From the IMG/VR virus record IMGVR_UViG_3300029393_000004: 64,000 nucleotides of DNA; one strand, given 5' to 3'. The position numbers were made by a program, and so were the translations under genes. This DNA is from a virus. The number at the start of each line of letters is the position of its first letter. The first letter of the stretch is position 1. The notes below the pieces were generated by a model, which was given only the letters and a program-made list of their open reading frames with translations, was not told the DNA's origin and searched no databases. This document shows, one piece after another, positions 1-49,703 of the stretch.

Positions 1-609
1 CCTCTCGGAAATCCAGTCCATCTATCGCCCCGTGACCCAGTATTCATTCTCCCCCATTGAATGGTAAATCCAGTTGAATTATCACGTGCCCATCCATTAG
101 TTCCATTAGAAACAGACCAATTAGAAGAGTTAGTTGTAACAGTGTCTTGAGTTGTAATAGAGAAAGTTGTGCCATTTCCTCTAGTGAAAGTCACGGTTCT
201 TCCGCTGACACTAACGGCTTTAATATAGTTGTCAGTAATTACCTGACCTGACCCGTCTTGTGTCGCTTTTGTAGCTGTATCTGCGGTAGTTGCCGAAACC
301 GCCTTTCCGTCGCTCGGCAAATAATCATGCGTGTGATCGGAAGCAGAAGCTCCGACATCAGCGGGAGTTAGCGTGATGTTTCCCGTTTCATCTGGCAAAC
401 ATCCGTTGATAGTTTTAACCTTCCCTGCTTCTTCGATAAGATCAGCTAAATCATCATTTCCAACAATTATTTTTGGAGCTTTTAAGAAATTTCCCTCTCC
501 ATCAATCGTGATAGATCCATTTATGGTGCCGCCAGTGCTTCCGACTGTTACTTTATTCAGTACGTTCTTAATGGCGGTTTTAATTTCTGTTTTTGTTTTC
601 TTTGGCATT
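1..609 (-). CDS. tail fiber protein, partial: N-terminal part only; the gene starts at 609 and runs off the window edge
   Basis: Manual minus-strand translation from the ATG at 609..607 gives MPKKTKTEIK...TADTATKATQDGSGQ...NGTNGW with no stop up to position 1. It carries fiber-like Thr/Asn-rich repeats. It is absent from the ORF track only because the window edge truncates it. Confidence 0.65.
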
Positions 610-908: not shown

Positions 909-1331
909 TTATGTCAAAGACCATTGAGTGACTAAGCGGTTATTCTTGCTACTCCAAATTCGTGCGTTGCCCCACGCTTCATCAAGATGAAAATCTGGCA
1001 GATCATCTCTACTGCCCTTCAAGACAATTTCTCCGCCCTCACCATTGTATCTGTTAACGACAATTAACTGAGTTTGCGTCTCGCCATTTAAGTACGTGGT
1101 GCCGTTAATCGTGAAGTTGGAATTTACTCTACCCGCTCCGTTTATCCAAGTTGTTCCGTTTACTGATAAATCTTTTTGGGCGACAGTCGGGCCATTAAAC
1201 CAAGCTGTTCCAACAACTGATAAATCATCGGAAATTGAAACTTGTTTAAACGAAACTACCCCCCCCACTTCAGCTTTCTTTTCGAGTGAGGTTTTGATTA
1301 AGTCGATACAGTCTTTTAAAGTCTTTGTCAT
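909..1331 (-). CDS. tail fiber-like protein (NGTT repeats); contains an in-frame G8 homopolymer
   Basis: 140-aa ORF with SVNGTTWINGAGRVNSNFTINGTTYLNGETQ repeats. The C8 run at about 1259-1266 (plus strand) encodes VGGV in frame. Confidence 0.55.
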   Translation of the reverse strand: MTKTLKDCIDLIKTSLEKKAEVGGVVSFKQVSISDDLSVVGTAWFNGPTVAQKDLSVNGTTWINGAGRVNSNFTINGTTYLNGETQTQLIVVNRYNGEGGEIVLKGSRDDLPDFHLDEAWGNARIWSSKNNRLVTQWSLT

Positions 1332-1345
1332 TTACCAAAAATTCA

Positions 1346-1797
1346 TTATGCTGTTCGTTTCCAACAGTAAGTAACTACATAGGGCGGAAGGTTGTTATGA
1401 GGTTGGTCATTGCCGAAACTCCAAACATAGCCCCATTGGGTGGTTGATCCTTCAACCGTTGATGGAGCTGGTTGTAAACTCAAACCGCTTCTTGAGGTTT
1501 CTTTCACTATGCCTGTTCGGTAATTTCCGTGATAAGAAGGCACAGCCATAAACAACTCGCCTTGGGTCTTGGGCAATTCCGCTTGAGTTAATTTATGAGT
1601 CGCTTCGCCACCCGTTTGCCCTTGTTGATAGGTATCTCCTGCGGTCAGAATGAACCTATCTTTTATTTGTACCCATGTTCCGCCGAAAATTTCACTTGGG
1701 GGGGGGTAGATACATCAGAAAAGTAATAACTACCCACTGGGTGGGCTTCTAACTTCGCTTTCTGAATCGCTTTTTCTAATAGTTGTTCTAAATTCAT
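1346..1797 (-). CDS. phage tail collar domain protein, interrupted by a frameshift at a C9 (coding-strand) homopolymer
   Basis: ATG at about 1797 directly follows the upstream stop. The N-terminal frame (MNLEQLLEKAIQKAKLEAHPVGSYYFSDVSTPP...) stops shortly after the 9-nt tract. The downstream frame (ORF 1346..1576, track start TTG) encodes the collar core: ...GTWVQIKDRFILTAGDTYQQGQTGGEATHKLTQAEL...HNNLPPY...WKRTA. A tract of 10 would fuse the two into a 151-aa protein. Confidence 0.6.
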
Positions 1798-2279
1798 TTA
1801 CGCTGTTCTTCGCCAAATGTATGCGCTTCTGTAAGGCTGTAGGTTGTTATGAGCTTGATTTCCGCCAGTGTTATCTGTGTTAATTCTGTTAGAGCCAACA
1901 ATCCATCCGTTTTGAGTGCTATTGGCGGCATAACCTGCTCGTCCTGATTTATTGTCAGGGAGCGTTACCATCGCTCCGTAAGTGTTCTTCCAACCATCGG
2001 TTCCCGAGCCGTTAATATTTTGACCGTGAAGATGTGCGGGCATTTCATTAACACTCAGTTTATGTGTCGCTTCCCCGCCCTCACTACCTACTGGATAAGT
2101 TGAGTTTGCTCCGAGTAAAACTCTACCTTCGAGTTTAACCCAAGTACTTACCCCCCCCCAAGTCCAAGAATTTCAGCAGGATTTCTATCTTCTTCGGTAA
2201 TGAAGTAACTACCTACTGGATGTGCTTTTAATACTGCAACCTGACCTGCTTTTTCAATTAACTCTTTAATCGTTGCCAT
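1798..2279 (-). CDS. phage tail collar domain protein (paralog), interrupted at a G9 (coding-strand) homopolymer
   Basis: ATG at about 2279 (MATIKELIEKAGQVAVLKAHPVGSYFITEEDRNPAEILGLGGG). The 9-G tract is followed immediately by TAA in this frame. The downstream frame holds GGEATHKLSVNEMPAHLHG...HNNLQPY...WRRTA (ORF 1798..2043). A 10-G tract would give a 161-aa collar protein. Confidence 0.6.
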
Positions 2280-2783
2280 TTAGCTACCTGCTTCTGTTTC
2301 GGTTTCGGCACCAGTTTCTTCGCCTAAAGCAGATTCAAGACTTGCGTAAGCCTCGTCAATCTGAGTCTGGAAGTCGTTCTTAGTCAAGTAAGTAGAAGTT
2401 GCTTCTGTCTTCTTCACATAGTTAGCTTCAACATCTGCTTTAAAAGCCTCGAACGCTGTTTTTAGCGCTTGAAATTCACTTTCATCAGCTTTCGTTTGAA
2501 GAACAACCTCATTAACCTCATCAAACGCTTCTACAATCGCTTCACCGAGTTCGATGATGTCGTTATCAAGACTCTCAAGAATATCAACCCAAACACCCTG
2601 TCTGCGCTGAAATAAGCGCTGTAGGTCTGATCTGAAGCAAAGCATTCCCTCTTTCAGATTTTCAGTGGGAAATACAATGCCAGCGCTACACGTAATGCTC
2701 GCTTCGTCATTGTGCAAAATTAACGGCAACGAGTCTTTTAACGGTGTCGTTAATTGAATTTCTTTATAACCTTGTGCCGCCAT
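2280..2783 (-). CDS. hypothetical acidic protein in the tail fiber module (possible fiber assembly protein)
   Basis: 167-aa ORF, translationally coupled to neighbouring genes. Confidence 0.4.
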   Translation of the reverse strand: MAAQGYKEIQLTTPLKDSLPLILHNDEASITCSAGIVFPTENLKEGMLCFRSDLQRLFQRRQGVWVDILESLDNDIIELGEAIVEAFDEVNEVVLQTKADESEFQALKTAFEAFKADVEANYVKKTEATSTYLTKNDFQTQIDEAYASLESALGEETGAETETEAGS

Positions 2784-3633
2784 TTTCTACCTGTACTTTC
2801 TTGGGCCTGCCACGTTTTATATAGGTATTTGCCCACTTAACTTTTGCCCAAACGCCCTCATGGTTTTCGGAATAGTAATAAGTAGAAGAGCCGTTAATTG
2901 AGCCGTTCTGAAGATATTTTTCCCACGCTTCAATCTTGTAAAACTCAATGGGAGACAATTCGCTCAAAAGTTTTAATTCTTTCTTGTTTGCGAAAATGCA
3001 TGGCGTGCATCCAACACGAGCAAATCCCATTGCATACAGCGGATTGGCTTTAATTCCGCTATCTTCAATCTTTCTAAAAACATCTTCGACCGTCCAACTT
3101 AAAATCGGTCTCACATCCCAAGCTTGAGCACCCGTTTTTTTATTTTCGAGTCTCAACTCTCTTTCGGGATATTTTGCACGTTTTATAGATTCATCGGCTC
3201 TGACACCCGTCCAAACTTCTACAGATTCTCCATTTTCAAGAAACTGAGCAATAAAGTCATTTGCGGGTTTTTGTTTTAATTCTTTTGTACAAAATCTACT
3301 AGTAAAGCCAGGAAATCTACCGTTGACCAAGCAAAGGTCTAAAAATGCACTACCTGTCGGTCGGATGTGTTTTGCGATTTCAGGATGGTCTTTGAGTCTT
3401 TCCGCTTTTCTTTTCAGCTTTTCCGTACTGTCTAATTTCAGTCTTACGATTTTTGAAAAACCTTTTGATTGAAAATAGTCATCAAGGTATTCCAAGTATT
3501 CATAAGTTTTGTAGTGCTCGTTACCTGTATCGCAGAAAATGAAGATTACATTCTCGGGTCTATTCTGCTCCATTGCAAGCAGAGCAACGGCCGTGCTGTC
3601 TTTTCCGCCAGATACTGATATTATTTTTCTCAT
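2764..3633 (-). CDS. PAPS reductase family PP-loop protein (phosphoadenosine phosphosulfate reductase / DndC-like)
   Basis: SVSGGKDS PP-loop near the N-terminus. FCDTGNEHYKTYEYL resembles the CysH DTG...ETY region. 289 aa. Confidence 0.7.
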   Translation of the reverse strand: MRKIISVSGGKDSTAVALLAMEQNRPENVIFIFCDTGNEHYKTYEYLEYLDDYFQSKGFSKIVRLKLDSTEKLKRKAERLKDHPEIAKHIRPTGSAFLDLCLVNGRFPGFTSRFCTKELKQKPANDFIAQFLENGESVEVWTGVRADESIKRAKYPERELRLENKKTGAQAWDVRPILSWTVEDVFRKIEDSGIKANPLYAMGFARVGCTPCIFANKKELKLLSELSPIEFYKIEAWEKYLQNGSINGSSTYYYSENHEGVWAKVKWANTYIKRGRPKKVQVENGGTRL

Positions 3634-4665
3634 TTAGTATCCCGCCGCCGTCCAAGTGAACGTGCCTGTAGTTTTGTTTCCTTCAACGTCGTAGAGCATC
3701 ACGGTAAAGCCAGTTGTGCTGACATTACTTACAATCGGACGAATGGCTTCTAAAGCATTTCCGCCACGCATTGTTACCGTCACTTCGGGAGCAACGCTGA
3801 ATTCTCTTGAGAAGTGAACGGTTGCGCCGTAATTCTTATCCGTAACGCTTGTAGAGCCTCGGTCATAAACGTCATCAACGTCAATAGCCACATCAATTTG
3901 CTCAACTAATGCTCGGTCAGCCGTTGTAGCCTCTAAAGCCAATCTGAAGAGCGCTTTCTGATATTCGTAGTCACCAGTGATGAATTCCCTAAATGTCGTA
4001 TATCCGACATGACGACCGCCGTTGCGCATGAACTTATCCAGACTTTCTTTCGTCCAAATCCCTTCTTGAAAGAACAAATCGGAAATAACACCTCGGGCTA
4101 CTTCCTTAATCGCATCATAGAAATTGAGTGACTGTGATTTAAATACGCCAATCTCTTTCTCGACCGTTGTCTCTGCAACCGTGTAGTTCTCTGAGTGATT
4201 TCTAATCCAAGCGATCTGTCGATCACATTGATCGAGCAGTTGCAATGCCTCAAAGACCATGTGCTCCGCATCTTTTGCCAAATGTTCAGCAAAAAAGATT
4301 TTATCTTCGACATTTTTATTTATGTCTTTCTCAGTTTTCGTCTCTTCAACGACAAAAAGCTCCTCAAACTCTTTTACTAGAACTAAAAGAGTATTCAGAG
4401 TGTATTCAAACTCGATTGCTTCGCTAAACGGAACATGAATTTGTGCTGATTTGGCTTCTAAGAAAGTCAGCAGTTCTTTGAGATTGCTTTCAATGTCAAA
4501 ACGAAACGTTTTGCTTACCGCAAGGGCTTCATCTATTGATGCAGTGTAGTTTGTGGGATGATGCCAGAGCCAGTCTCGCTGATCATCCCAAGTCCCTAAG
4601 CCCGAATTTTCGCTAATCCATGTTCTGTATCTTGTCGAAGCAGGAGATACAACAATGGTTGTCAT
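3634..4665 (-). CDS. tail fiber / receptor-binding protein with a C-terminal H-type lectin domain
   Basis: The C-terminal ~65 aa (TVHFSREFSVAPEVTVTMRGG...SNVSTTGFTVMLYDVEG...TFTWTAAGY) matches the H-type lectin pattern (F..F...P.V......sNVt..GF.v......W.A.G). Confidence 0.55.
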   Translation of the reverse strand: MTTIVVSPASTRYRTWISENSGLGTWDDQRDWLWHHPTNYTASIDEALAVSKTFRFDIESNLKELLTFLEAKSAQIHVPFSEAIEFEYTLNTLLVLVKEFEELFVVEETKTEKDINKNVEDKIFFAEHLAKDAEHMVFEALQLLDQCDRQIAWIRNHSENYTVAETTVEKEIGVFKSQSLNFYDAIKEVARGVISDLFFQEGIWTKESLDKFMRNGGRHVGYTTFREFITGDYEYQKALFRLALEATTADRALVEQIDVAIDVDDVYDRGSTSVTDKNYGATVHFSREFSVAPEVTVTMRGGNALEAIRPIVSNVSTTGFTVMLYDVEGNKTTGTFTWTAAGY

Positions 4666-5126
4666 TAGCTAGACGGCTGAGACATTGTGAAAGTAAATGT
4701 CATCTTAAGGGTATCGTCATCGCCCTTATTGATAACTGGGAACACAACTCGGTCAATCAAAATGCCGTCAGTTTCCGCATTCTGCACACTTGCTTCGGTC
4801 AATGCGCCTGTGGCTTCGCCCTTGTTGAATGTCGTCTCAAAAGTAAATGTCTTTGTGCCAGCAGTATGAGCGTATGTGGCTGCTTTCGCCATTAACTGAG
4901 TTTGAAGAGCTGTCTGATCAACAGAAACGGCAGTAGTGCTTGTACCTACAGCGATGTAGCTCATAACAGCAGGACGAGCAGAAGCGTTACCAATAGCGTC
5001 GGCAACGAAATCGAAACCGACATCAAGAATGGCATTGTGCTTATGAACAACTTCGTAGGAACCGTCTGCTTTGTGAAGTTCGGCTGTAAGAGAGCCTACT
5101 AATTTGAAGGTGTCAGATTTAATCAT
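4665..5126 (-). CDS. hypothetical tail-associated protein
   Basis: 153-aa ORF, start-stop coupled to gpJ and the lectin protein. Confidence 0.4.
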   Translation of the reverse strand: MIKSDTFKLVGSLTAELHKADGSYEVVHKHNAILDVGFDFVADAIGNASARPAVMSYIAVGTSTTAVSVDQTALQTQLMAKAATYAHTAGTKTFTFETTFNKGEATGALTEASVQNAETDGILIDRVVFPVINKGDDDTLKMTFTFTMSQPSS

Positions 5127-5189: not shown

Positions 5190-8100
5190 TTAAGCATTCC
5201 CCACTGACAATAGTTTTATTTGACCCTGCGGAAATGCGGGGGTCGTTTTGAACTCAACCTGCTTGCCAAGAATGCCGTAACCAAAGCCGCGAGTGACGTT
5301 TGTTTGATAGAACGCAATACAGAAGTAATCATCTGCAAGAAACTCAGTTTCAAAAGAGATGTCTTTCCCGTCACTGCAAGCAAGATTTAATGTCTTTTCT
5401 TCCGTGTTGTAGTAAATCTTGTACCAGCCAGCGCCGTCTTGAGTCTGCATTATCAGAATCTCAGCACACTTATTCCGCCCCTGATCTTTTGCCTTAAACC
5501 AAAAACTGAATTTAAAGTGCTCTGGCACATCAACTAACTGCCACTTAGCGCTTGTGATCAAATTCATGGTCATTCCAAGAGCATATCGGGCAGGTTCATA
5601 ATGCGCTTGAGCTGATATTGCCTGCTTGCCCGAAAGCGTATCAGTTGTGTTTTCAAGTGACATTCCCTCAATGTCTGAAGAGCCTAAACCGTACTCAAGA
5701 GCAATCTGCTTATAAGCAACGATACCGTCTTGGTCTCCTTCTAAGTTCCAAGCTCGCTCTGCGCCAGGAGCTTCAAAGTCGCACGTTAAATCTTCCCAAG
5801 TGGTTGTATCTTCACCTGTGCAAGCAATCGTTGTGACAGAGGTTGAGAAGGAGTTATGCGCATAATGCTTCTTGAAGAGATCAACAGGGATGATGTACTC
5901 CGAACGCTTTCTATCATCATCCATGACAAGATCGTCACCTCGATCAGACATATACACTCGGTGATTAGAGAAGCCTAATCCACGTTCGTGCATTTCGATG
6001 ATGATGTTCTTATCTTTGTCGTTGGTTACACCGATTTCATACCAGTCAGCAGACTCAGAATAAATTCCAGGCATACAGACTGCTTTAATCCAGAATTTTC
6101 TTCTTGTCTGTGCGCCAACCGGAATAGTCGCATGATTGAGTTTTGACTGACAAACAAGCGTAGAAGCCGTCCAGTTAATACCTTCTCGGATTTCATAGAA
6201 AGTAATATCTGTTTCGGGGTTACTATCCCACTTCAGCTCAAGACGCTCATTAGAACGTACAACTTGGAAGTTCTCAGGTGTAATCGGAGCGTGAAGATCA
6301 AGTCTTGTCGTTGTAACGTGCTTAGAGAGACTGCCGTCAGAGTTAATCGCCCGAATATGGTAGTAATAAATGCCCGCTTTATCCTGATAGTGAACAAACG
6401 AGTTACCTGCAAAGTTCGTAATAATCGCTTCGCCAGCGTCCCAAGAATCACCAATTCTGATTTCATAACCGAGCGCGCCTTCAACGGGTGTCCAGTCAAG
6501 CTGTAAGTAAGTTGAGCGCTTAGTAATCGTGAAGTCTTGAATATCGTCAGGAGACGGTAAAGAATCTTCTGCGTCATAATAGGTCTCTAGCTCAGTAGAA
6601 AGTGTACCAAGTACGCCCTTGGCGTAAATCTTGATGTGATAAAGGCCATTCTGTGCGTTAGAGATCGTGTAGTAAGGAGAATTAACTTCAACAGAAGTCC
6701 ATTCGTCTCCGTTGCCGTCCTTGTCTTCCGTTCGATACTCGACAACCCAAGAAGCATTGTTCTTACCAGCCGTCCAAGAAAGCTCAAGATTACCTGTTCT
6801 AATACCTGTAGCGGACTTAGAGATGGAAACCGAGATATTGAGGTTATTGGGTTTGCCAACATCATACGGGTCAATTTCTGAAGTATTGGGAAGCTGAATT
6901 TCCCAACCCTTTTCAATCAGATCATATTTGCCTTTGTTGTAGCTAATACAATCAATATTGAAAGTGCCCTTATCTTCGCCCTGAGCAATGTTTACAACAC
7001 GTGCAATCTGAGGTACGAGATTTTCTTCTTCGATAATCCAAATTGCATAGTCAACGGGAAGCTCGGGCAAAGGTTCGTCCCAAAAGACCTCGGCTCTTGG
7101 CTCATCATCAGAGATTTTCAGTGTTCTCGTGACGAATGTGTTGTCAGGCATCCGAATTGAAATTTTCGGATTGGCTTCACTCTTTAACTGCGTTACTGCG
7201 TCAAGAACGGCTGAAGTAGTTGTGTAAGACTTTAAGCGTCCGCCAAGTCTTCTGCCTGCATGATAGGGGTCGTGAATCTTAATAATGTCGCCTGGAAGCA
7301 CTAAAGCGGCATCCAAACCGACGGTAAACGAGATCATGTCGGATTCATACTGCTCAGTGTAGAGAATCCACTTGCCAGCACGAATTGCTTGAGCACGAGA
7401 AGTACAGCCGAAAAGTGTTAACTCAGACTGTCTAACGCCCCATTTTTCAATAAGCTCTCGGTCTTCAACGTACTCTACAACCTGCTTGTAGTTTTGATCA
7501 GGGTCGTTCCAAGTGATTAAAGCAACTGAGTGATGCTCGTTTCTGGAAGAGCCTGCGTAACGAAACTCTCCGTTGACAACATTGGCTTGAGTGAAAAGAA
7601 CCGACGGCTCAGTGGGTTTGTCGCACGTGAAGTTGGCCTGACCCATTGCCCAATAGGTCATACCTCTGAAAACAGAAGTAATGGAGTTGATTAACTCATA
7701 GGCTTCAGAACGCTCGGTAACCTGAGTGTTAATTGAGAACCGTTTTTCTTTCTTACCTAAGCCGTCATCAACTAATTCATCACAATAACGACCGATCTCA
7801 TAGAGCTTGGATTTATTGATCTGTTCAGGCTTAATGAATTCGCCCAAACCCCAACGGGTATTAGTCAGCAAACCATAGAGAATCCAAGCGGGATTGTCAG
7901 TAACCTCCATCTTGAAGGTGCCGTCCCAAATTCCGTTATAAGTATTGGTCTTTTTGTCATAGTTGCTCGGAACTTGCAGAATCAAGCCGTCAACAATGTA
8001 CGAACGAGTCGGAATTGAAGAAAGGTTCTCGGCCGTTGCAGAGATACCAATAATCGCTGAGTTTGGATAATTCAACTTCGTTTCTGAAATCAGAAACATC

Positions 8101-8732
8101 GTTGTGAAACTCAGTGCGGCCACGTAGTCGTCATCCGCTTCGGGAGATAACTTTGTCAGACGAATTAACCAGCGCTCGGGCGCTTTGCCCTTAGAGTCCC
8201 GCTGAGGGAGGTTAAACGTGTAGCTTCTTTGATACTGAGAAGAAGTTTTGCCTTCAACTTTTTGCGTGCCGTAATCAACAAAGTCATCGTTATTGATGGC
8301 AATTTCAAATTTAAACTCAATAGAGGTCTTTTTTAAGCCATTATCGACTCTGTAGAGATAAGGAATGGTGATACCGCAACGAACTTTGTCAGCGATTGTC
8401 TCTGTAATTGATCGAACAACGGGGAAGCCGTTTTTAACTTCCGCCCCGACCTCAATGGGGATAACGGTATTCTCGTATCCCTGCATCATGTCTTGATAAG
8501 GCGTGCCTCTAGCTTCTTTTACATAAACATTGTCATAGTTAAAAGAGCCTGTTTGGTTCTGAAGAGGTACGTCATCAAAATAAATGGACTTTGCGCCGTC
8601 AACAAGACCTCCGATCTGACCTTCGGAGATTAAGTCCAAGACTTGAAGCGAGGCAATCGAGAAAAGAGTGTTCTTGTCGTTTGACTGTTTGCTACCTTTA
8701 CTACCACCAGCACCAGCTACATAATTTTTCAT
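5190..8732 (-). CDS. J: host specificity / central tail fiber protein, lambda gpJ family, with FN3 repeats
   Basis: 1180 aa. The N-terminus (MKNYVAGAGGSKGSKQ...LFSIASLQVLDLISEGQIGGLVDG) is gpJ-like. Several fibronectin-III-like repeats are present. It is positioned after the I/K/L/M genes. Confidence 0.85.
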   Translation of the reverse strand: MKNYVAGAGGSKGSKQSNDKNTLFSIASLQVLDLISEGQIGGLVDGAKSIYFDDVPLQNQTGSFNYDNVYVKEARGTPYQDMMQGYENTVIPIEVGAEVKNGFPVVRSITETIADKVRCGITIPYLYRVDNGLKKTSIEFKFEIAINNDDFVDYGTQKVEGKTSSQYQRSYTFNLPQRDSKGKAPERWLIRLTKLSPEADDDYVAALSFTTMFLISETKLNYPNSAIIGISATAENLSSIPTRSYIVDGLILQVPSNYDKKTNTYNGIWDGTFKMEVTDNPAWILYGLLTNTRWGLGEFIKPEQINKSKLYEIGRYCDELVDDGLGKKEKRFSINTQVTERSEAYELINSITSVFRGMTYWAMGQANFTCDKPTEPSVLFTQANVVNGEFRYAGSSRNEHHSVALITWNDPDQNYKQVVEYVEDRELIEKWGVRQSELTLFGCTSRAQAIRAGKWILYTEQYESDMISFTVGLDAALVLPGDIIKIHDPYHAGRRLGGRLKSYTTTSAVLDAVTQLKSEANPKISIRMPDNTFVTRTLKISDDEPRAEVFWDEPLPELPVDYAIWIIEEENLVPQIARVVNIAQGEDKGTFNIDCISYNKGKYDLIEKGWEIQLPNTSEIDPYDVGKPNNLNISVSISKSATGIRTGNLELSWTAGKNNASWVVEYRTEDKDGNGDEWTSVEVNSPYYTISNAQNGLYHIKIYAKGVLGTLSTELETYYDAEDSLPSPDDIQDFTITKRSTYLQLDWTPVEGALGYEIRIGDSWDAGEAIITNFAGNSFVHYQDKAGIYYYHIRAINSDGSLSKHVTTTRLDLHAPITPENFQVVRSNERLELKWDSNPETDITFYEIREGINWTASTLVCQSKLNHATIPVGAQTRRKFWIKAVCMPGIYSESADWYEIGVTNDKDKNIIIEMHERGLGFSNHRVYMSDRGDDLVMDDDRKRSEYIIPVDLFKKHYAHNSFSTSVTTIACTGEDTTTWEDLTCDFEAPGAERAWNLEGDQDGIVAYKQIALEYGLGSSDIEGMSLENTTDTLSGKQAISAQAHYEPARYALGMTMNLITSAKWQLVDVPEHFKFSFWFKAKDQGRNKCAEILIMQTQDGAGWYKIYYNTEEKTLNLACSDGKDISFETEFLADDYFCIAFYQTNVTRGFGYGILGKQVEFKTTPAFPQGQIKLLSVGNA

Positions 8733-28178: not shown

Positions 28179-28405
28179 CAGAAGATACCTTTGAACGGGT
28201 AAGTTATCGTCTCAACAAATTCACCAAAAAGCGAACTTTCCTTCTTAACAGGACGCTGAAGATACAAAGACGCTTCGTATTCTGCTAAGAGAAGTTCTAT
28301 TCTGTCTAGCTTCTCTTGCAAGTATCTCTTTTCTTCTTGCTTAGTCAGCTCCGCTTCTCTTTTGTTCAGCTCTTCTTCTCTGACTTTCAACTCTTCTTCA
28401 GTCAT
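28178..28405 (-). CDS. hypothetical coiled-coil protein
   Basis: 75 aa, between TerS and TerL. Confidence 0.4.
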   Translation of the reverse strand: MTEEELKVREEELNKREAELTKQEEKRYLQEKLDRIELLLAEYEASLYLQRPVKKESSLFGEFVETITYPFKGIF

Positions 28406-29076
28406 TCTTCGCCTCCGATAATGTCGTCTGGAGCCTCGGTATCAATCACGCTGTTTCTTTCTGCAAACTGTTTGTTCAATTCTTCGTCGGGCAGTTCGAG
28501 AGAATCTTCTTCCTGATAATTTCTGATCTGTTCGATCTGATCGGCTGTAAGTTCAGTTAGAACAAGTTCTGGCAGTGCATCGGTGTTCTTATCGTCTTTA
28601 TCCAAGCCGAGTACAGTCCAGCGTTCTTGGCGTGTTACTGCTAAAGTTCTTGCGGCAGATTCAAGGGCTTTTAAGTTACCTGCGATAGAAGCAAACGGTT
28701 TCCCATTCTGTTTGGCGAGGGCAACTTCGGCCCACGTGAGTTTTGCCAAGCCCATCGCCATCTTGTAATGGTCTTCTTTCGTCTCACGAATGCGGGATGC
28801 AACAAGTGTTGCTTCCTGCTCTGCCATTGTCTTAGCTTTATTCATTGCAGACTTTTGTACTTCGTCTGCGTAAGCACCCTTCTTAATTCCGTGATTACTA
28901 ATGAAGTTGGAAACGACAGATTTTGGCACGCCCAACTCTTTAGCAATTTGAGCGGGTGTAAATTCGCCAGTTTCATAAAGTGCCGTTAATCTTCTTTTTT
29001 CTGTAGCGCTCAAAGATCGAGTCGAAGTTCGCTTTTTCGGCTCTTCTTTTGCTTCTAATTCTTTTTCGACTTCCAT
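28402..29076 (-). CDS. terS: terminase small subunit (HTH)
   Basis: HTH FTPAQIAKELGVPKSVVSNF, positioned upstream of TerL. Confidence 0.65.
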   Translation of the reverse strand: MEVEKELEAKEEPKKRTSTRSLSATEKRRLTALYETGEFTPAQIAKELGVPKSVVSNFISNHGIKKGAYADEVQKSAMNKAKTMAEQEATLVASRIRETKEDHYKMAMGLAKLTWAEVALAKQNGKPFASIAGNLKALESAARTLAVTRQERWTVLGLDKDDKNTDALPELVLTELTADQIEQIRNYQEEDSLELPDEELNKQFAERNSVIDTEAPDDIIGGEE

Positions 29077-30633: not shown

Positions 30634-30910
30634 TCGTCAAGCCCCATTTCTTGAACAATTCTTCGATTGAAGAGAATGTCTGATGACCGATCACACGATC
30701 AACTTCTTTGCCATCTTCAACAATCAGAATCGTTGGAACGCCCCGAACGTTATGAGCAATAAATTCTTCTCTTGCGGAATCCATGTCATAAACAGTCAAA
30801 GGAACATCAAAGCGCTCGCAAAAATCCGTCAGCAACGGCTTTAACATTCTGCAAGGCGAGCAAGTAACGCTCGAAAAAATATAGACTTCTTTATTTGCCA
30901 TCGAATTCAC
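30626..30910 (-). CDS. thioredoxin/glutaredoxin-like protein (CSPC active site)
   Basis: CxxC motif (VTCSPCRM) and a VPTILIV beta strand. 94 aa. Confidence 0.7.
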   Translation of the reverse strand: MNSMANKEVYIFSSVTCSPCRMLKPLLTDFCERFDVPLTVYDMDSAREEFIAHNVRGVPTILIVEDGKEVDRVIGHQTFSSIEELFKKWGLTNA

Positions 30911-31577
30911 TCGTAATATCTCTGTATCCGTCTTCAGTGCGCACTTTTACGTCAATACGCTCTCTGTAACGCTTCAATATGTAGGTGTCAGGCGCCAAGT
31001 CATTCACCAAGTCGGTGTGGGTTGTGGCAACGATGAGGGTTGCGCCACATTTGCGTGCAATCTTTTGCAGATTGAAGGCAATGTTTTTCGCTGTGACTCG
31101 ATCAAGCACCGCCAAGAATTCATCCGCAAACCAAACTTGCGCGCCTGACTCGATCAACCTTGCCAATTTGAATCGGTATCGCTGACCGTCCGAAAGCTCC
31201 TTGGGCTTTCTGAGATACAGGTTTGCATCTGATAAACCCACGAGAGAGAAAATTTGAAGAGCTTCGCTGACAGTCGGACAAAGTTGATCAATGATTGGTT
31301 CGTCTGTAGAGGTTGCTTCATCAATATCCGCAACCTTCAGACCTTCTTTTTTCATCAGACTCTTCAATTCATTCAGAATCGTTGACTTGCCCGAGCCTGA
31401 TTGACCTGTAATGTAAACAACGTCTCCATCGTTGATCTGCAACTTCAAATTGTCGAAAACAACGAAGTCTTTTTCGTCCAGCCCGAGACCGAACGCTTCT
31501 GCAATCTCAAGAACACGCTTGGTTCTTGAGACTTCAGTGGAGAAGTGCTTGTTAATTAAATAGGTTCTGTTTGTCAT
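30891..31577 (-). CDS. ABC-type ATPase, stand-alone nucleotide-binding domain
   Basis: Walker A GQSGSGKST; ABC signature LSDGQRYR; Walker B VWFADEFLAVLD; H-loop ATTH. The likely start at the internal M overlaps the SPFH stop (TAATG). Confidence 0.7.
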   Translation of the reverse strand: MTNRTYLINKHFSTEVSRTKRVLEIAEAFGLGLDEKDFVVFDNLKLQINDGDVVYITGQSGSGKSTILNELKSLMKKEGLKVADIDEATSTDEPIIDQLCPTVSEALQIFSLVGLSDANLYLRKPKELSDGQRYRFKLARLIESGAQVWFADEFLAVLDRVTAKNIAFNLQKIARKCGATLIVATTHTDLVNDLAPDTYILKRYRERIDVKVRTEDGYRDITSEFDGK

Positions 31578-32419
31578 TACTTTGTTTGTACAAAGGGCAT
31601 CGGAGCGTCCGCACTCATAAACTGGGGCATAACACCATTCCATTTGTTAATCGCTTCAAGCTGTACAACCTCGGGATTGTCTCTAAGCGCTTTAGCCTTA
31701 AGAGCAATAGCGTCTGCTTCTGCTTGAGCTTCAATCTTGATTGACTCTGCCTTACCACGGGCGGCTTCAATGAGCTTCTGAGCTTCTGCTTTAGACTGAG
31801 CGATTTCGTTTTCTCTCAAAAGAGCACGCTGAGTTGCTTCAATCTTTGCGTTGATGGAGTCTCTGACCTGTTGCGGATACTGCATATCCGAAGTCCAAGA
31901 AACTTTAACGATTTCAATTCCGATGGGGTCTAATTTGGCTTTAAGGTCTTTAGTGACCTCATCCAATAAGTCTGTTTTGCCCGTGGTTGTGAGCTTATTC
32001 ACGTCCATCTTAGAAGCGTGCTTAATCAGAGAATCGCTGATGTTCTGTCTTACGTTTGTAGCGGTAATTTCATCAACACCCTTACGGTACGTCTGAAAAA
32101 CCGTCGCTGTCATCTCAGGCTTAACACGATATTCAATGCCGATCTTGGCTTGAACAGTCATCGCATCCGAAGTCTGAAAGATGAACGGAGAATTGTAGGA
32201 ATGAAGCTGATTGAATGTCGGGAACAGGTAAATCTGTTCGTTCCAAGTCAAGAAGTAACGACCGACATTAAGAGCTTCCTGCTGAACGCCCTTTGAGTCG
32301 CCATAGAGATTGACTTTAATGCCAACATTACCTGCCGGAACGGTTTCAACAGAGCAACCGTTTAAATTCACACAAGCCAGCAGAAAACCGAGAAGTACAG
32401 CTACTTTAAATTTTTTCAT
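31577..32419 (-). CDS. SPFH/band-7 (prohibitin/HflC-like) lipoprotein
   Basis: Lipoprotein signal with lipobox LNGC. SPFH-like body with a coiled-coil tail (EAQAEADAIALKAKAL). Confidence 0.65.
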   Translation of the reverse strand: MKKFKVAVLLGFLLACVNLNGCSVETVPAGNVGIKVNLYGDSKGVQQEALNVGRYFLTWNEQIYLFPTFNQLHSYNSPFIFQTSDAMTVQAKIGIEYRVKPEMTATVFQTYRKGVDEITATNVRQNISDSLIKHASKMDVNKLTTTGKTDLLDEVTKDLKAKLDPIGIEIVKVSWTSDMQYPQQVRDSINAKIEATQRALLRENEIAQSKAEAQKLIEAARGKAESIKIEAQAEADAIALKAKALRDNPEVVQLEAINKWNGVMPQFMSADAPMPFVQTK

Positions 32420-33041: not shown

Positions 33042-33701
33042 TTATTTAATGTAGTTTTGAGCAAATTCAACAAAGGCTTCTGCACCAGCTTTAGACGTTT
33101 CGCCCTCGATTTTTGCCATGAAACGAGCAACAGTTCTTTCCTGCGCTCCCTTAATCGTTTTAAAGCCAAGAGCGTCAGCAATTCTCACTTCCGCTTCATC
33201 GGCTTCAATAATCTTTTCTTCGGTTTCCGTCGCTTTCTTTTCAATATCTGCGTAAAGGTCTGCTGAAACGGCTTCAGGCTTGAACTCGCTCAAGTCAGCT
33301 TCTAAGAAAGCCAATTCTTTCTTATCGAAAATTCCGCTGAGGTCTAAATCAATGCTTGCGATTTCGTTTTGCAATCCGACAGTATCGAAGTCGGAAATGG
33401 CAACTCGGTTGTCTGCGATACGAGCCGCTTTTATTTGTTCTTCGGTCAAGTCTCTGCGAACTAAAACTGGAACTTTCTTCAGTCCCAAAAAGCGGGATGC
33501 TTCAGTTCTGCCATGACCTTTGATAATTACGCCGTCTTTATCAACGACAATAGGCTGATCGAATCCGAACTGTTTGATACTTTGAGCGATCTTTTCAACC
33601 TGCTCTTCGTCATGTATCTTGACATTGTTCTCGTATGGCTTGACGGCTTCTATCGGCCACCATTCAATTTTCAATTCGCCATTCGTACTTGTAGAACTCA
33701 T
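33042..33701 (-). CDS. ParB-like nuclease domain protein
   Basis: ParB N-terminal pattern (IVVDKDGVIIKGHGRTEASRFLGLKKVPVLV). Confidence 0.7.
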   Translation of the reverse strand: MSSTSTNGELKIEWWPIEAVKPYENNVKIHDEEQVEKIAQSIKQFGFDQPIVVDKDGVIIKGHGRTEASRFLGLKKVPVLVRRDLTEEQIKAARIADNRVAISDFDTVGLQNEIASIDLDLSGIFDKKELAFLEADLSEFKPEAVSADLYADIEKKATETEEKIIEADEAEVRIADALGFKTIKGAQERTVARFMAKIEGETSKAGAEAFVEFAQNYIK

Positions 33702-33873
33702 TTTCCTTTTCTCGTTCTTCTATTTCTTCTGCGAAAAGTTTTCTTAATTCTTCTCGATCTTCTGACTCGTCGGGTTGTTCTAAGTCTTCAATTTCGAGTT
33801 CTCTTGGGATTCCAGGCGGCTTTATTCTGTCGCTCTTATTCTTCTTTTTTGACATTTGTGCAAAGGTAAACAA
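33664..33873 (-). CDS. small acidic ORF between the ParB genes (uncertain)
   Basis: 69-aa ORF overlapping both neighbours. May be spurious. Confidence 0.2.
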   Translation of the reverse strand: MFTFAQMSKKKNKSDRIKPPGIPRELEIEDLEQPDESEDREELRKLFAEEIEEREKENEFYKYEWRIEN

Positions 33874-34492
33874 GCGCGTCGCCAGCGTTCGTCAGAGAAT
33901 CGCTTTCTGTGTAGCCCTGCTCTTTCATAATCTTTTCGATTAGCTTTTGCACTTTTTCAGAATCTTCGATTGCAACTTTAAAACGCATCACGACGTGTGT
34001 TTGAGGCGGTCGTTCGGTTACGGGAGCGCTTTCTTCTAATTCTTCTTCATCAACTTCCAATTCATCTAAATTGATAGATGTGTTTGAAAACAGCGTCTCA
34101 AGGCTTTGATCAGAGTACGGCATATAAGACGAAAGATCAGATATGTCACCCAAGCCCGAAAGCAATTCGGATAGCTTGAAAGCGTCATCTTCGCCATAAC
34201 GTCCGTTATCAATGAGAGAGATTTTCTTGGCTTCTTCATCTGAAATCTCGCCAAGGTTAATAACTGCGACCTTATCTAATCCCAGCTCTTTGGCGGCTCT
34301 CCATCTATGTTCTCCGCCAATAATTTCAAAACCTTCATCTTGCTCACGCACAAGAATCGGTTTGAACTGACCGAATCGTCTCAGGCTCTCCTTTATTTTT
34401 TCTTCGTTGTCTGGAGAAACGACGTTTGTGTTGTAGGGATTAGGGGTCAGTTGATTGATTGGAACTTGTTCTATTTTTAATTCGTCCCGCAT
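33836..34492 (-). CDS. ParB-like nuclease domain protein (second copy)
   Basis: ILVREQDEGFEIIGGEHRWRAAKELGLDKVAVINL. Confidence 0.7.
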   Translation of the reverse strand: MRDELKIEQVPINQLTPNPYNTNVVSPDNEEKIKESLRRFGQFKPILVREQDEGFEIIGGEHRWRAAKELGLDKVAVINLGEISDEEAKKISLIDNGRYGEDDAFKLSELLSGLGDISDLSSYMPYSDQSLETLFSNTSINLDELEVDEEELEESAPVTERPPQTHVVMRFKVAIEDSEKVQKLIEKIMKEQGYTESDSLTNAGDALVYLCTNVKKEE

Positions 34493-34549: not shown

Positions 34550-36091
34550 ATGTCAATGGAAAACAATACGATAAAGATTTTAGCGAATGCTGTAACGTGC
34601 AAAGTAGATACTGAGGACAGAAACGTAAAGCTCGAAGTCAATCGTTGTCTGACTTATTTTGTGGACGGCTATGAACAATCTACCGCTTTCAAAATGCACA
34701 CGTGGGACGGCACGGCTTCCTTCTTCAACTTTGCAAAATGCACGTTCCCCGCAGGTTTTATGTATTACGTCGGAGCCTGTCTGAAAAGAAAAGGTTATGA
34801 CGTACAGTTCTATAAAAAGCCGTTGCCGAAGCCTTTGGGCAAACTCAGACCGAAAATTGGCAATTATGAGTACGACCCAAGGTATGAATATCAGTACACG
34901 GTTACAGAGAAACTTTTAAAACACGGACAGATCATTTGTCGAGCGGCAACGGGCGCGGGTAAAAGTCTTATTGCTTTAATCGCTTTTGCAACCATCAATC
35001 GACCTACTCTGTTTCTTACGACACGCTCCATTCTCATGTACCAAATGAAGGAAAATGTCGAAAACAATCTCGGCATTGATGTTGCGGTTATCGGAGACGG
35101 CAATTTAGGTTTTGAAAACTCAGACGGCTCTAAATCACTCAAAAAATTCACTGTCGCTACCGTTCAAACGATTCATTCATACATCAAAGAGCCGAATCCC
35201 ACTGATTCCGCCTATGAATTCACTGCACAAAAGAAACGTCAAGAGTTTATGAAGTCCATTCTTGAGAAGTTTGAGTTTGTCATCTTAGAAGAAGCTCATG
35301 AGTCTTCAGCTTCAGGTTGGTTTGAACTACTTAAATACTGCAAAAACGCTTATTACAGACTTGCTTTGACGGGCACACCGTTTATGAAGGAGTCTGAAGA
35401 GATGAATATGCGTTTAATGGCTTCTTCTGGCCCTGTCGCCATCACCGTTACTGAAAAGCAACTCATTGACTGCGGGATTCTTGCGACGCCTTACTTCAAG
35501 TTTGTTCATCTGACTAAGAAACCTACAACCATGTCGATGAAGACTTCTTGGCAACCCGCCTATCGCATCGGCATTGTTGAAAACGAAGAACGTAATCAAG
35601 CCATTATCTATGAAGCAAAACGTGCTGTTGCTCACGGTCTTACCGTGATGATTCTTTTCAAGCAAATTGCCCACGGTAAAATGCTCAAGGAAATGCTTGA
35701 TGACGCTCGTATTCCCAATGAGCTTATTGTCGGCGCTGATGATCAAGCGGAAAGAAAACGGGCAATTAACAAACTCAAAGACGGCAAAATTAAAGTCTTA
35801 CTCGGCTCAACTATTCTTGATGTCGGAGTAGATGTCCCTGCTGTCGGCATGGTGATAATTGCTAGTGCTGGCAAAGCTGAAGTCGCTCTCAGACAACGTA
35901 TCGGCAGAGGTCTGCGTGCCAAGAAAAATCAAGCTAATATCTGTTTTGTGGTTGACTTTGATGACCCGTTTAATAAGTACCTGAAGAATCATGCTCAACA
36001 GAGAAAAGCGATTATTCAGCATACAGACGGCTTCAAAGAACACATTGTTGAAGATTTTGACTACAACTTGCTCAAGGAAAAATTATGCTAA
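34550..36091 (+). CDS. SF2 DNA helicase (DEAD/DEAH-like)
   Basis: Walker A AATGAGKS; motif II ILEEAHES; motif VI QRIGRGLR. 513 aa. Confidence 0.8.
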   Translation: MSMENNTIKILANAVTCKVDTEDRNVKLEVNRCLTYFVDGYEQSTAFKMHTWDGTASFFNFAKCTFPAGFMYYVGACLKRKGYDVQFYKKPLPKPLGKLRPKIGNYEYDPRYEYQYTVTEKLLKHGQIICRAATGAGKSLIALIAFATINRPTLFLTTRSILMYQMKENVENNLGIDVAVIGDGNLGFENSDGSKSLKKFTVATVQTIHSYIKEPNPTDSAYEFTAQKKRQEFMKSILEKFEFVILEEAHESSASGWFELLKYCKNAYYRLALTGTPFMKESEEMNMRLMASSGPVAITVTEKQLIDCGILATPYFKFVHLTKKPTTMSMKTSWQPAYRIGIVENEERNQAIIYEAKRAVAHGLTVMILFKQIAHGKMLKEMLDDARIPNELIVGADDQAERKRAINKLKDGKIKVLLGSTILDVGVDVPAVGMVIIASAGKAEVALRQRIGRGLRAKKNQANICFVVDFDDPFNKYLKNHAQQRKAIIQHTDGFKEHIVEDFDYNLLKEKLC

Positions 36092-49627: not shown

Positions 49628-49703
49628 TCTCCGATAGCTCAGTTGGTAGAGCGACGGACTGTTAATCCGTGGGTCGTTGGTTCAAGTCCAACTCGGAGAG
49701 CCA
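49628..49703 (+). tRNA. tRNA-Asn (GTT)
   Basis: Cloverleaf found by eye: acceptor TCTCCGA/TCGGAGA, D arm GCTCAGTTGGTAGAGC, anticodon arm ACGGA-CTGTTAA-TCCGT, T arm GTTGGTTCAAGTCCAAC, CCA encoded. Confidence 0.8.

Follow-up and report, generated by a model that had tools for sequence, protein, structure and literature searches.

DndC, SspD and BrxP are PAPS-reductase-domain subunits in DNA phosphorothioation (PT) (PMC12914056, PMC12707154), the synthesis of which has been reported to require a P-loop NTPase partner (PMC12914056). SspD and DndC are PP-loop ATP pyrophosphatases, and DndC contains an Fe-S cluster (PMC10853773, PMC12914056). BrxP of BREX type 4, which was shown to be required in PT synthesis (PMC12914056), is a fusion protein of about 780 amino acids that also contains DUF4007 and further domains and acts together with BrxC/Z/L. 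Phage genes annotated as 'PAPS reductase' figure among the auxiliary metabolic genes reported most often, and the usual reading is that they help in sulfur assimilation. The phage copies are concentrated in variable, anti-defence regions (PMC13551039), and one of them is reported to promote evasion of the host Dnd system, in the passage of PMC13551039 that cites Piel et al. 2022.

In the window, by which we mean the whole stretch of 64,000 nucleotides that was analysed, a gene of this kind is located among the tail-fibre genes, arranged as follows.

5190..8732, minus strand: lambda J-like central tail fibre/host-specificity protein of 1180 amino acids, at the head of the distal-tail block
4665..5126, minus strand: p153, a tail-fibre-type protein (phrog_5417, phrog_4176)
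3634..4665, minus strand: p343, a fibre-region protein upstream of the enzyme, the C-terminus of which has a sub-threshold H-type lectin match
2764..3633, minus strand: the PAPS-reductase-like PP-loop ORF (phrog_424 clade), 289 amino acids, ATG start
2764..2783, minus strand: 20-nt overlap between the enzyme ORF and p167, from the junction alignment
2280..2783, minus strand: p167, a fibre-region protein downstream of the enzyme, with no family match

An earlier note on this DNA had described the ORF correctly, including its tight coupling to both neighbours. The ATG at 3631-3633 directly abuts the TAA stop codon of p343 at 3634-3636 (...GGATAC TAA ATG AGA...), and the start of p167 at position 2783 creates the 20-nt overlap, in which the final six codons (NGGTRL) and the stop codon of the enzyme ORF coincide with the 5' end of p167 in another frame and consist of recipient-phage sequence. 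The note had placed the gene between a lectin-type and collar-domain genes. The fibre block was confirmed, but the lectin label is based on a sub-threshold match (22.8 bits for p343 against the Pfam H_lectin profile, cutoff 24), and p167, for which Pfam and PHROG profile searches found no family, intervenes before the collar/Gp10_C-like genes, which begin one gene beyond it. The J ortholog in contig L009 matched PF24801 (FNIII-A_GpJ) and PF13550 (Phage-tail_3). It was also noted that the tip-protein cassettes downstream contain poly-G/C tracts of variable length. The statement that no metabolic genes are nearby holds locally, with the genes for ThyA, DHFR and thioredoxin located more than 45 kb from the enzyme gene in the window.

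No terminator-like sites flank 2764..3633 on the minus strand and no strong promoter-like site was identified close upstream of the gene, the nearest being a 9/12 match inside p343 (4143..4114); we therefore infer that the gene is expressed together with the late tail operon, as a passenger. The number of promoter-like sites in the region was not above the shuffled expectation, and the scan yielded nothing convincing for a cassette with its own promoter or terminator. Judged by its sequence, the gene is thus not a moron in the strict sense of an autonomous transcription unit, but an in-operon passenger.

The protein matched the Pfam profile PF01507 (PAPS_reduct) far beyond chance (E 1.1e-25; 91.1 bits, cutoff 22.5; alignment to positions 3-173 of the 175 in the profile) and phrog_424 with an E-value of 4.2e-60. 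The CysH/DndC-type assignment suggested earlier from the letters alone was borne out by these profiles, and the protein was nearer to DndC/SspD than to QueC, for which no match to PF06508 was obtained at E <= 0.01. The motifs on which that assignment was based were also recovered, and with the conserved cysteines they are located as follows.

3592..3618, minus strand: PP-loop SVSGGKDST, the ATP pyrophosphatase signature, residues 6-14, invariant in 56 homologs
3517..3531, minus strand: DTGNE motif, with invariant D35, T36, G37 and E39
3289..3333, minus strand: C101 and C115 (RFCTKELK), conserved in 51/56 and 56/56 homologs, candidate Fe-S ligands
2998..3009, minus strand: C209-T-P-C212 (VGCxPC), conserved in 56/56 and 55/56 homologs

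The DTG..E.Y region corresponds to the invariant family columns D35, T36, G37, E39, T43 and Y46, and the other core motifs of phrog_424 (RFC..LK, RADES, NPLY and VGCxPC), likewise invariant columns, are kept. Every nucleotide-binding motif and the four conserved cysteines C101, C115, C209 and C212 are intact. The AlphaFold model (pLDDT 92.3) gave APS and PAPS reductases as the best PDB folds in Foldseek searches, with CysD, FAD synthase and the [4Fe-4S] thiolase TtuA next in rank, and the CTPC segment aligned with GCAPC of the Mycobacterium tuberculosis APS reductase chain 7LHR. These profiles and motifs identify the product as a predicted PAPS-reductase-fold PP-loop ATP pyrophosphatase of the large phage and prophage clade usually annotated 'PAPS reductase' (phrog_424). 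It is ordinary in kind, its family of PAPS-reductase-like enzymes that use ATP being common in phages.

The same family includes the PHROG 424 morons of the Burkholderia phages phiE125, phi644-2 and vB_E173, Acidovorax phage Acica gp46 and Agrobacterium phage Rivra gp60, to which the enzyme was 34% to 42% identical over 87% to 93% of its length. All share the PP-loop, DTGNE, RADES, C101/C115 and CxPC, and the genes are, like the one studied here, accessory and present or absent at a hotspot (PMC2920897). However, those copies occupy early, replication or nin modules, with genes for DNA methyltransferases or ParB-like proteins as frequent neighbours, whereas the gene in the window is located in a late tail-fibre block. 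The former are also 300 to 330 amino acids long and end in ...CSSIYGLCE, whereas the latter encodes 289 amino acids without this tail.

The two-cysteine C-terminal tail (C-x6-C-E) was present in 49 of the 56 aligned homologs and in a variant form in the Vibrio phage versions, but was absent from the enzyme and from the homologs P0001 and P0003. The enzyme ends in ...RGRPKKVQVENGGTRL, with C212 as its last cysteine; the tail is missing because the ORF ends in the recipient sequence of p167. The tail may be the sulfur-relay element, and its loss makes this copy unusual in one respect; the gene is nevertheless under strong purifying selection. Three ways in which the loss might have been made good were considered and rejected. 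C34 does not qualify as compensation, since it also occurs in the tail-keeping homologs P0005 and P0007. The cysteines in the N-terminus of p167 (ITCSAGIVF...LCF) are found in the same p167 sequence in phages without the enzyme gene. A frameshift fusion with p167 would require a +1 shift, for which no slippery site was seen by inspection, and p167 is unchanged in those same phages.

No near-identical DNA was found in the GenBank phage collection, and the genomic context was therefore taken from IMG/VR, Logan and NCBI contigs. The junctions were aligned for seven carriers of the gene (the window, L023, L017, L024, L018, L025 and L009) and four non-carriers (L019-L022). Since p343 and p167 are contiguous in near-identical phages that lack the enzyme gene, the alignment delimits an exact cassette.

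2784..3633, minus strand: presence/absence cassette of 850 bp, ATGAGAAAA...GGTAGAAA, both junctions with a 5-nt microhomology (AAATG)

In the non-carriers, the J, p153, p343 and p167 proteins were 92% to 99% identical to those of the window (97% to 98% for the flanking p343 and 92% to 99% for p167), and the fibre genes were intact and contiguous. The stop codon of p343 is here followed directly by the ATG of p167 (...GGATACTAA joined to ATGGCGGCA...), whereas exactly 850 nt separate them in the carriers. The insertion site was identical in all seven carrier contigs, the window included, and the reading frame of the enzyme was intact in each of them, across about 21% protein divergence. The alignment thus shows a seamless insertion between the p343 stop codon and the p167 start codon, whereby the cassette occupies the original ribosome-binding context of p167 and provides a new one with its own 3' end (AGGTAGAAAATG). 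With near-isogenic phages that differ by an exactly defined cassette, the locus represents a clean natural experiment. It also provides, from a single sample series (IMG 3300045988), genomes with and without the gene that match each other and could serve to probe the hypothesis of a function in anti-defence or DNA modification.

The dN/dS ratios of the enzyme ranged from 0.031 to 0.053, with dS values of up to 0.73, consistent with strong purifying selection. The dS values of the PAPS alleles (0.6 to 0.7) exceeded those of the flanks (0.1 to 0.3), as expected if the alleles are older than the flanks. Furthermore, the enzyme in L009, a Parasutterella muris assembly, was 79% identical to that in the window, as compared to 61% for p343.

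For homologs with 34% to 45% identity, 12 other contexts were examined: 11 were early, replication or nin regions, and none was a tail module. The contexts included GpA with a C5-MTase, a P2-like early region, CII/O/ParB-like genes, MTases at both flanks, ERF/SSB, YqaJ/SSB, RecT/RdgC, PolA/SNF2, DnaB/NinB, C5 and Dam MTases upstream, and NinG, several homologs thus adjoining DNA methyltransferases. One distant homolog was located between glycosyltransferase genes and beside the portal gene, and a glycan-linked role is conceivable for some family members. The homolog in Vibrio phage K73 is situated between the terminase and portal genes, which is a precedent for a location in a late module. Like the enzyme, the Vibrio phage versions (K73 and 49E33-1) are accessory PP-loop proteins with FC...K and CxxC; they differ from it in having SGGRTS as the PP-loop and in keeping a Cys-rich C-terminal tail (SCSESCEVFVCE), and the identity was only about 30% over the first 184 residues (64% of the length). 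It is this Vibrio phage PAPS-reductase-like family that is reported to aid evasion of host Dnd, as Piel et al. 2022 are cited in the relevant passage of PMC13551039. The finding that would, by its own account, count against the earlier note, a common, unlinked moron of variable location, applies to the family, but not to this lineage, in which every carrier has the gene at one and the same site.

Among the PADLOC profiles, which have no curated cutoff so that the match to SspD denotes similarity and not membership, the best scores were obtained for SspD (4e-30), BrxP (5e-18) and DndC (1e-12). The alignment to the SspD profile (PDLC02782, E 4.1e-30) covered profile positions 1-211 of 277 and residues 2-255 of the query, that to BrxP was partial (residues 112-222), and the match to the DndC model TIGR03183 was limited to residues 68-188 and scored 40.4 bits against a cutoff of 290.4. 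The domain is the one shared by all three proteins, and the cysteine pattern is compatible with the Fe-S cluster of DndC. Unlike SspABCD and DndABCDE, however, the enzyme is a single phage-encoded domain of 289 amino acids for which no SspA/B/C or DndA/D/E partners were found, either by profile searches of the flanking genes or in a scan of the 48 ORFs with 90 or more amino acids in the 28-64 kb part of the window, beyond the presumed structural block at 9-28 kb. None of the additional domains or partners of BrxP was detected, the neighbours being tail genes. In the 48 ORFs, no cysteine desulfurase, DndD/SspC-type ATPase or DndE/SspB was detected, and no DNA methyltransferase, TGT or QueC; the only ABC-type ATPase was a protein of 250 amino acids (30891..31643) beside a Band_7 gene. 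Since PT synthesis is reported to require a P-loop NTPase partner, autonomous phosphorothioation is unlikely, and an autonomous module was rejected because the scanned ORFs yielded no desulfurase, no ATPase partner and no DNA-binding partner. A QueC/7-deazaguanine reading was likewise rejected, with no match to PF06508 and no TGT or Que genes in the same scan.

We hold with moderate confidence that the gene codes for an accessory, late-co-expressed SspD/DndC-like enzyme that acts on nucleic acid or against host defence and does not modify the fibre. It is a hitch-hiking accessory gene, extraneous to the tail fibre and probably related to DNA or defence. The late tail operon would transcribe it as a passenger, and the enzyme would bind ATP and carry a [4Fe-4S] cluster on C115, C209 and C212, possibly also on C101. 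It would then adenylate a nucleic-acid substrate in the cytoplasm and act on neither the fibre nor host glycans. As a result, the progeny phage DNA may be modified prior to packaging or, alternatively, the enzyme may interfere with restriction systems of the host, sulfur-based or other (Dnd/Ssp/BREX type 4). For the former, late expression has a parallel in Mom of phage Mu, a late-expressed DNA-modifying anti-restriction gene at the end of the genome, adjacent to the tail-fibre region, with its own regulated promoter; this likeness concerns position and timing only, fold and chemistry being unrelated. Among the three ideas in the earlier note, that of a DNA-modification moron in the late operon is thus the best supported, apart from the autonomous transcription that the term implies. 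Several observations count against the preferred reading, the homolog between glycosyltransferase genes among them. The late-operon position fits poorly with a need at the moment of DNA entry, most homologs being early; the anti-Dnd activity attributed to Piel et al. 2022 in the cited passage concerns a distant homolog that aligns to 64% of the length at about 30% identity; and partner genes went undetected in the 28-64 kb scan of a phage whose enzyme has lost the C-terminal Cys tail.

An unlikely variant is that the tail-less late form does not insert sulfur but is neofunctionalised, keeping ATP and Fe-S binding while having lost the sulfur-relay tail. It could then be a decoy or dominant-negative partner that poisons host DndCDE, SspBCD or BrxPC complexes or, as an adenylating enzyme, put a mark other than sulfur on the progeny DNA ahead of packaging. 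If so, the purifying selection, the presence/absence pattern and the older PAPS alleles would reflect balancing selection by hosts that differ in their PT-based defences.

The missing tail, the ending of the ORF in recipient sequence and the dispensability of the gene in four relatives could also be taken to mean that it is an inactive remnant, a 3'-truncated fragment from illegitimate recombination that is merely tolerated in the operon. We regard this as very unlikely, given dN/dS ratios of 0.03 to 0.05 at dS values of 0.6 to 0.7, the retention of all invariant catalytic columns and the intact frame in 7/7 carrier contigs.

We give hardly any credence to the role routinely proposed for such genes (PMC2920897, PMC9144972, PMC6145125, bioRxiv 10.64898/2026.02.18.706556), that of a PAPS/APS reductase yielding sulfite for host cysteine synthesis during infection. 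The closest folds are indeed APS and PAPS reductases (PDB 1SUR, 2O8V, 6VPU, 2GOY and 7LHR; Foldseek E 3e-9 to 6e-8, TM to target 0.58-0.63), and the genome includes a gene for a protein of the thioredoxin family, which ordinarily serves CysH as reductant. However, the identity to these enzymes was only 17% to 23%, with about 70 extra residues, and similarity to the solved chains was limited to about 70 residues. Every curated equivalog or subfamily score was far below threshold, namely 39 bits against 165 for cysH (TIGR00434), 35 against 254 for PAPS_reductase (TIGR02057), 51 against 235 for APS_reductase (TIGR02055) and 54 against 154 for PRK02090 (NF002537). The C-terminal catalytic cysteine of CysH is part of an ECGLH-type tail, and the enzyme has no cysteine beyond C212, hence no counterpart of it. 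The family is, moreover, associated genomically with DNA enzymes and not with sulfur metabolism. Taken together, the cassette polymorphism, the intact core without a cysteine tail and the lack of detected Dnd/Ssp partners argue against the CysH reading.

It is equally improbable that the substrate of the enzyme is a tail-fibre protein or a glycan on the host surface, as the earlier note had envisaged to explain its position. The gene is inside the fibre block, is translationally coupled on both sides and has kept its site in all carriers, and one distant homolog has glycosyltransferase genes as neighbours. Nevertheless, four relatives with the same contiguous fibre genes lack it, the family resides in replication or nin modules in all but one of the 12 other contexts, and the enzyme is better conserved than the surrounding fibre proteins (79% versus 61% in L009), unlike a co-evolving partner of a receptor-binding protein. 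The need for ATP and a probable Fe-S cluster would also confine its action to the cytoplasm. For annotation, location within a tail-fibre operon is thus no evidence for a structural role.

Finally, an RNA/tRNA thiolase-like enzyme with TtuA/TtcA-type [4Fe-4S] PP-loop chemistry on phage or host tRNA has only the slightest probability: TtuA and MnmA are among the significant structural matches, the cysteines could accommodate an Fe-S cluster and the phage carries the tRNA genes listed below, but the TtuA matches were much weaker than those to CysH/APR (TM 0.38-0.42, rmsd >11 Å), no other PP-loop family in Pfam was matched at E <= 0.01, and most family members belong to small temperate phages and have no tRNA genes around them.

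49628..50420: tRNA cluster, four tRNA genes of the phage

It was also noted that PDB chain 21fy_C, named 'PptA', matched the family profile weakly (E 4e-4) and the Vibrio phage protein somewhat better (E 1e-4).

The gene for the PAPS-reductase-like protein, hereafter the enzyme, starts with an ATG codon, encodes 289 amino acids, and is located within a series of fibre-type genes. The features of this region, taken from the ORF listing of the window and, for the 2 motifs, checked on the sequence, were as follows:

5190..8732, minus strand, J-like gene, 1180 aa
4665..5126, minus strand, p153
3634..4665, minus strand, p343, upstream neighbour of the enzyme gene
2764..3633, minus strand, enzyme gene
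3592..3618, minus strand, PP-loop SVSGGKDST of the enzyme
3517..3531, minus strand, DTGNE motif of the enzyme
2280..2783, minus strand, p167, downstream neighbour of the enzyme gene

The TAA codon of p343 immediately precedes the ATG codon of the enzyme gene (...GGATAC-TAA-ATG-AGA...), and the stop codon of the enzyme gene lies 20 nt past the ATG codon of p167, which corresponds to a 20-nt overlap. The abutting and overlapping junctions as well as the PP-loop and DTG region thereby agree with the earlier note, which had also named a lectin-type protein upstream and collar-domain fibre genes downstream. The H-type lectin match of the p343 protein is below the Pfam threshold (22.8 vs 24 bits), and Gp10_C/collar-like genes are present, but located one gene past p167 rather than adjacent to the enzyme. 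The immediate downstream neighbour, p167, had no family match in Pfam or PHROGs, and more small fibre-type ORFs were located beyond it on the same strand. A fibre-like ORF (MPKKTKTEIK...TINGSITIDGEG...; 1..608, minus strand) starts at about position 608 and extends off the start of the window, and the tail-fibre block thus continues past it.

The profile searches placed the enzyme in the PAPS-reductase-like PP-loop family. PF01507 (PAPS_reduct) was the sole Pfam match, nearly over the full profile (E 1.1e-25; 91 bits, gathering score 22.5 bits), and the PHROGs match was phrog_424, "phosphoadenosine phosphosulfate reductase" (E 4e-60). The curated NCBIfam models matched only in part and with scores far under their cutoffs, with 39 bits for CysH (cutoff 165), 35 bits for PAPS reductase (cutoff 254), 51 bits for APS reductase (cutoff 235), and 40 bits for DndC (cutoff 290). 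The defence-system models were ranked SspD (4e-30, nearly full length), BrxP (5e-18), and DndC (1e-12). A search of a large database yielded 2606 homologs at E ≤ 1e-5, and among the matches listed, these were typically 300-325 aa long, about 40-45% identical, and in many cases located on phage-sized contigs. The enzyme is a new member of this well-populated phage family, a finding that is real and ordinary in kind.

The fold is that of a PP-loop ATP pyrophosphatase, and every nucleotide-binding motif is present, as are 4 conserved cysteines. The AlphaFold model was confident (pLDDT 92.3, pTM 0.86), and its top PDB matches were the APS reductase 2GOY and CysH structures (E ~3e-9, TM to target ~0.6), followed by CysD, the PAPS domain of FAD synthase, and the [4Fe-4S] thiolase TtuA. 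In an alignment of 56 family sequences, the invariant columns were S8, G10, K11, D12, S13, T14, D35, T36, G37, E39, C115, K120, R145, E148, S149, C209, and P211, while C212 was present in 55 and C101 in 51 sequences. Since CTPC in the enzyme lines up with GCAPC in the Mycobacterium tuberculosis APS reductase (chain 7LHR), a candidate Fe-S cluster involving this motif, C115 and C101 is plausible. It was also noted that PDB 21fy chain C ("PptA", 270 aa), which has a degenerate PP-loop (CHFSCGAPSA), matched a Vibrio phage PAPS-reductase-like protein (E 1e-4) better than any CysH chain did, and the enzyme family profile weakly (E 4e-4). Among solved structures, this chain may be the nearest to these phage proteins.

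With p343 as the query, 9 related loci were identified in IMG/VR, and the region was compared by a tblastn map and junction alignments. The gene order J-p153-p343-enzyme-p167 was shared by 7 carriers: the window, L023 (=L001), L017 (=L002), L024 (=L003), L018 (=L004), L025, and L009, the last from a Parasutterella muris assembly. In the 4 non-carriers (L019, L020, L021, and L022), with flanking proteins 92-99% identical to those of the window, the stop codon of p343 is directly followed by the ATG codon of p167 (...GGATACTAA|ATGGCGGCACAAGG...). The difference amounts to exactly 850 nt (2784..3633), here called the cassette, with a 5-nt microhomology, AAATG, at its edges. Because the insertion falls exactly between the 2 codons, the enzyme gene takes over the former initiation context of p167, for which a new Shine-Dalgarno-like AGGTAG is provided at the 3' end of the cassette. 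A scan for promoter- and terminator-like sites detected no autonomous transcription signals for the enzyme; no terminator-like sites flank the cassette, and the nearest promoter-like site, inside p343, matched at only 9/12 positions. The cassette is a seamless in-operon passenger. The earlier note had raised the idea that the enzyme modifies a fibre component, and its position among the fibre genes is the observation behind this; that these genes are complete and contiguous in the 4 relatives without the cassette is strong evidence that the enzyme neither assembles nor modifies the fibre.

Most of the aligned family sequences (49 of 56) end with a tail that contains 2 cysteines (consensus ...C(S/T)SIYGLCE), and remote Vibrio phage versions have a related cysteine-rich tail (...SCSESCEVFVCE...), unlike the enzyme. 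The enzyme and its 2 closest relatives (P0001, 96% and P0003, 79% identity) instead end with ...RGRPKK(VQVEN/EAID)GGTRL. The tail is missing because the 3' end of the gene is the 5' sequence of p167 in another frame, which supplies the final 6 codons and the stop (NGGTRL*). Nevertheless, the gene is under purifying selection and not decaying, with Nei-Gojobori dN/dS values of 0.031-0.053 and dS up to 0.73 between the window and its relatives. Two features are therefore of note: an indel polymorphism of exactly 850 bp, and a tail that was lost while strong constraint persisted.

The dS values of the cassette against L002/L017, L004/L018, and L003/L024 (0.60-0.73) were several-fold higher than those of the flanking p343 and p167 (0.11-0.35; 0.11-0.28 against L002 and L004). 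The cassette alleles are thus older than the sequence around them, a sign of mosaic recombination. For the P. muris relative, which is more distant, identity is 79% for the enzyme and only 61% for the adjacent p343. With 39.5% GC (GC3 36%), the cassette is slightly poorer in GC than its neighbours (43-46%) and similar to the early region of the phage. The P. muris locus (GCA_943193055; 157-kb contig CALPCR010000003.1, 49713..70579) is syntenic and points to Sutterellaceae as the host; genes for a Gp34_trimer/Peptidase_S74 fibre, a holin, a lysozyme, a Fic-domain protein, and a radical-SAM protein follow further downstream.

Elsewhere, the family is mostly tied to functions in the replication, recombination, and methylation of DNA, as seen in 12 contexts besides the window lineage. 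Homologs were located after GpA and a C5 methylase and ahead of the integrase in Acidovorax phage Acica, in the early region of a P2-like phage, between CII and a ParB-like/O-like replication block in Burkholderia vB_E173, and with a methyltransferase on either side in Agrobacterium Rivra. On metagenomic or genomic contigs, they were found with ERF/SSB, YqaJ/SSB, RecT...RdgC, PolA/SNF2, DnaB...NinB, or DUF1367/NinG, and in one case a few genes downstream of C5 and Dam methylases. The exception was L031 (Logan SRR13304735, 3931..8811), where the homolog P0105 (41% identical) lies near a portal gene between a Glyco_transf_4 gene and a gene for a 957-aa double Glycos_transf_2 protein; among the contexts seen, this one alone gives a hint of a role linked to glycans or DNA glycosylation. 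Counted separately, Vibrio phage K73 has a distant member between the terminase and portal genes. The family is therefore a common accessory gene of variable location, the outcome listed in the earlier note as a refutation, and this speaks against a fibre-specific role. The late-operon site is unusual but not unprecedented.

Phage PAPS reductases have traditionally been termed morons or sulfate-assimilation AMGs (PMC2920897, PMC9144972, PMC6145125, bioRxiv 10.64898/2026.02.18.706556), and a 2026 survey notes them in variable, Aca-regulated anti-defence regions and cites Piel et al. 2022 for a phage copy reported to help evade host Dnd (PMC13551039). The PAPS-reductase-domain subunits of DNA phosphorothioation systems are DndC, SspD, and BrxP, which require a P-loop NTPase partner (PMC12914056, PMC12707154, PMC10853773, PMC12839542).

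We consider it very probable that the enzyme is an accessory passenger unrelated to fibre function, while the chances of a nucleic-acid or anti-defence function seem evenly balanced; the overall explanation is slightly favoured. The enzyme would be co-expressed with the late tail operon, bind Fe-S, and adenylate a nucleic-acid target in an ATP-dependent manner, and its presence/absence polymorphism could be explained by a benefit that hinges on the host defence repertoire. By analogy with Mu Mom, which is expressed late and marks progeny DNA before packaging, late expression would be compatible with such marking, and fits less well with an activity that must be in place as the phage DNA enters. 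The enzyme may instead be a decoy or interference factor, or perform other adenylation-based chemistry. Autonomous phosphorothioation is unlikely, given the loss of the cysteine tail and the lack of partner genes: the enzyme is an orphan relative to the 48 ORFs scanned against Pfam at 28-64 kb, which included no DNA methyltransferase, cysteine desulfurase, DndD/DndE, SspB/SspC, TGT, or QueC.

The same scan and the tRNA genes gave the following picture of the rest of the window:

30891..32419, minus strand, 250-aa ABC-type P-loop ATPase overlapping an SPFH/Band_7 protein (Pfam)
33042..33701, minus strand, ParB_N protein (Pfam, E 3e-9)
33836..34492, minus strand, ParB_N protein (Pfam, E 4e-17)
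49628..50420, plus strand, 4 tRNA genes (Asn-GTT, Tyr-GTA, Gly-TCC, Ile-AAT)

The adjacent ParB_N genes are located where the presumed structural block meets the early region; in other phages, PAPS-reductase-like genes are often accompanied by ParB-like genes (e.g., in vB_E173), but here the ParB_N genes are 30 kb from the enzyme gene. The ATPase/Band_7 pair, unusual for a phage, is located between the ParB_N genes (33-34.5 kb) and an HTH_23 ORF (28402..29076). One helicase matched ResIII, DEAD, Helicase_C, and SWI2_SNF2 and is probably the 513-aa ORF at 34550..36091. Other matches were ThyA, DHFR, a PNKP-type HAD phosphatase, an RNase T-type exonuclease, a metallophosphatase, GNAT, DUF1599 ("nucleotide modification associated domain 1"), and thioredoxin. 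The nucleotide-metabolism set includes DHFR, the HAD phosphatase, and a 331-aa thymidylate synthase with an N-terminal extension of ~30 aa (51156..51680, plus strand; 56104..56610 and 60670..61665, minus strand), and likewise thioredoxin, DUF1599, and GNAT, placed within 29-64 kb. Bacteria seldom have the Ile anticodon AAT, and the region around the tRNA cluster (36-50 kb) has a low GC content (33-40%) and few long ORFs.

Downstream of p167 (909..2279, minus strand), small collar/Gp10_C-like tip cassettes are arranged in tandem, with 2 copies in the window, followed by p140, and about 2 to 5 copies in relatives. Nearly every tip cassette of the window and of the relatives (L009 and L017-L025), and p140, contains a G7-G11 or C9-C10 homopolymer ~60-250 nt into the frame. 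In the window, these were:

2151..2159, minus strand, G9 in tip cassette 1, out of frame
1698..1706, minus strand, C9 in tip cassette 2, out of frame
1259..1266, minus strand, G8 in p140, in frame

The 2 tip cassettes are broken exactly at the tract, into ORFs of 43+81 aa and 44+76 aa. Across 10 loci, 11 of 41 tracts were in frame and 30 out of frame, and the same tip cassette varied from G7 through G8, G9, and G10 to G11 among near-identical relatives. These lengths are metagenome-assembly consensus values, in which long homopolymers are error-prone, and assembly error could account for the differences. With this caveat, the tracts suggest a phase-variable repertoire of receptor-binding tips, for which the hypermutable polyG tracts of Campylobacter phages, as listed in PMC10877375, are a precedent (Sørensen et al. 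2021, Cell Rep 35:109214), and they are possibly of more interest than the enzyme itself.
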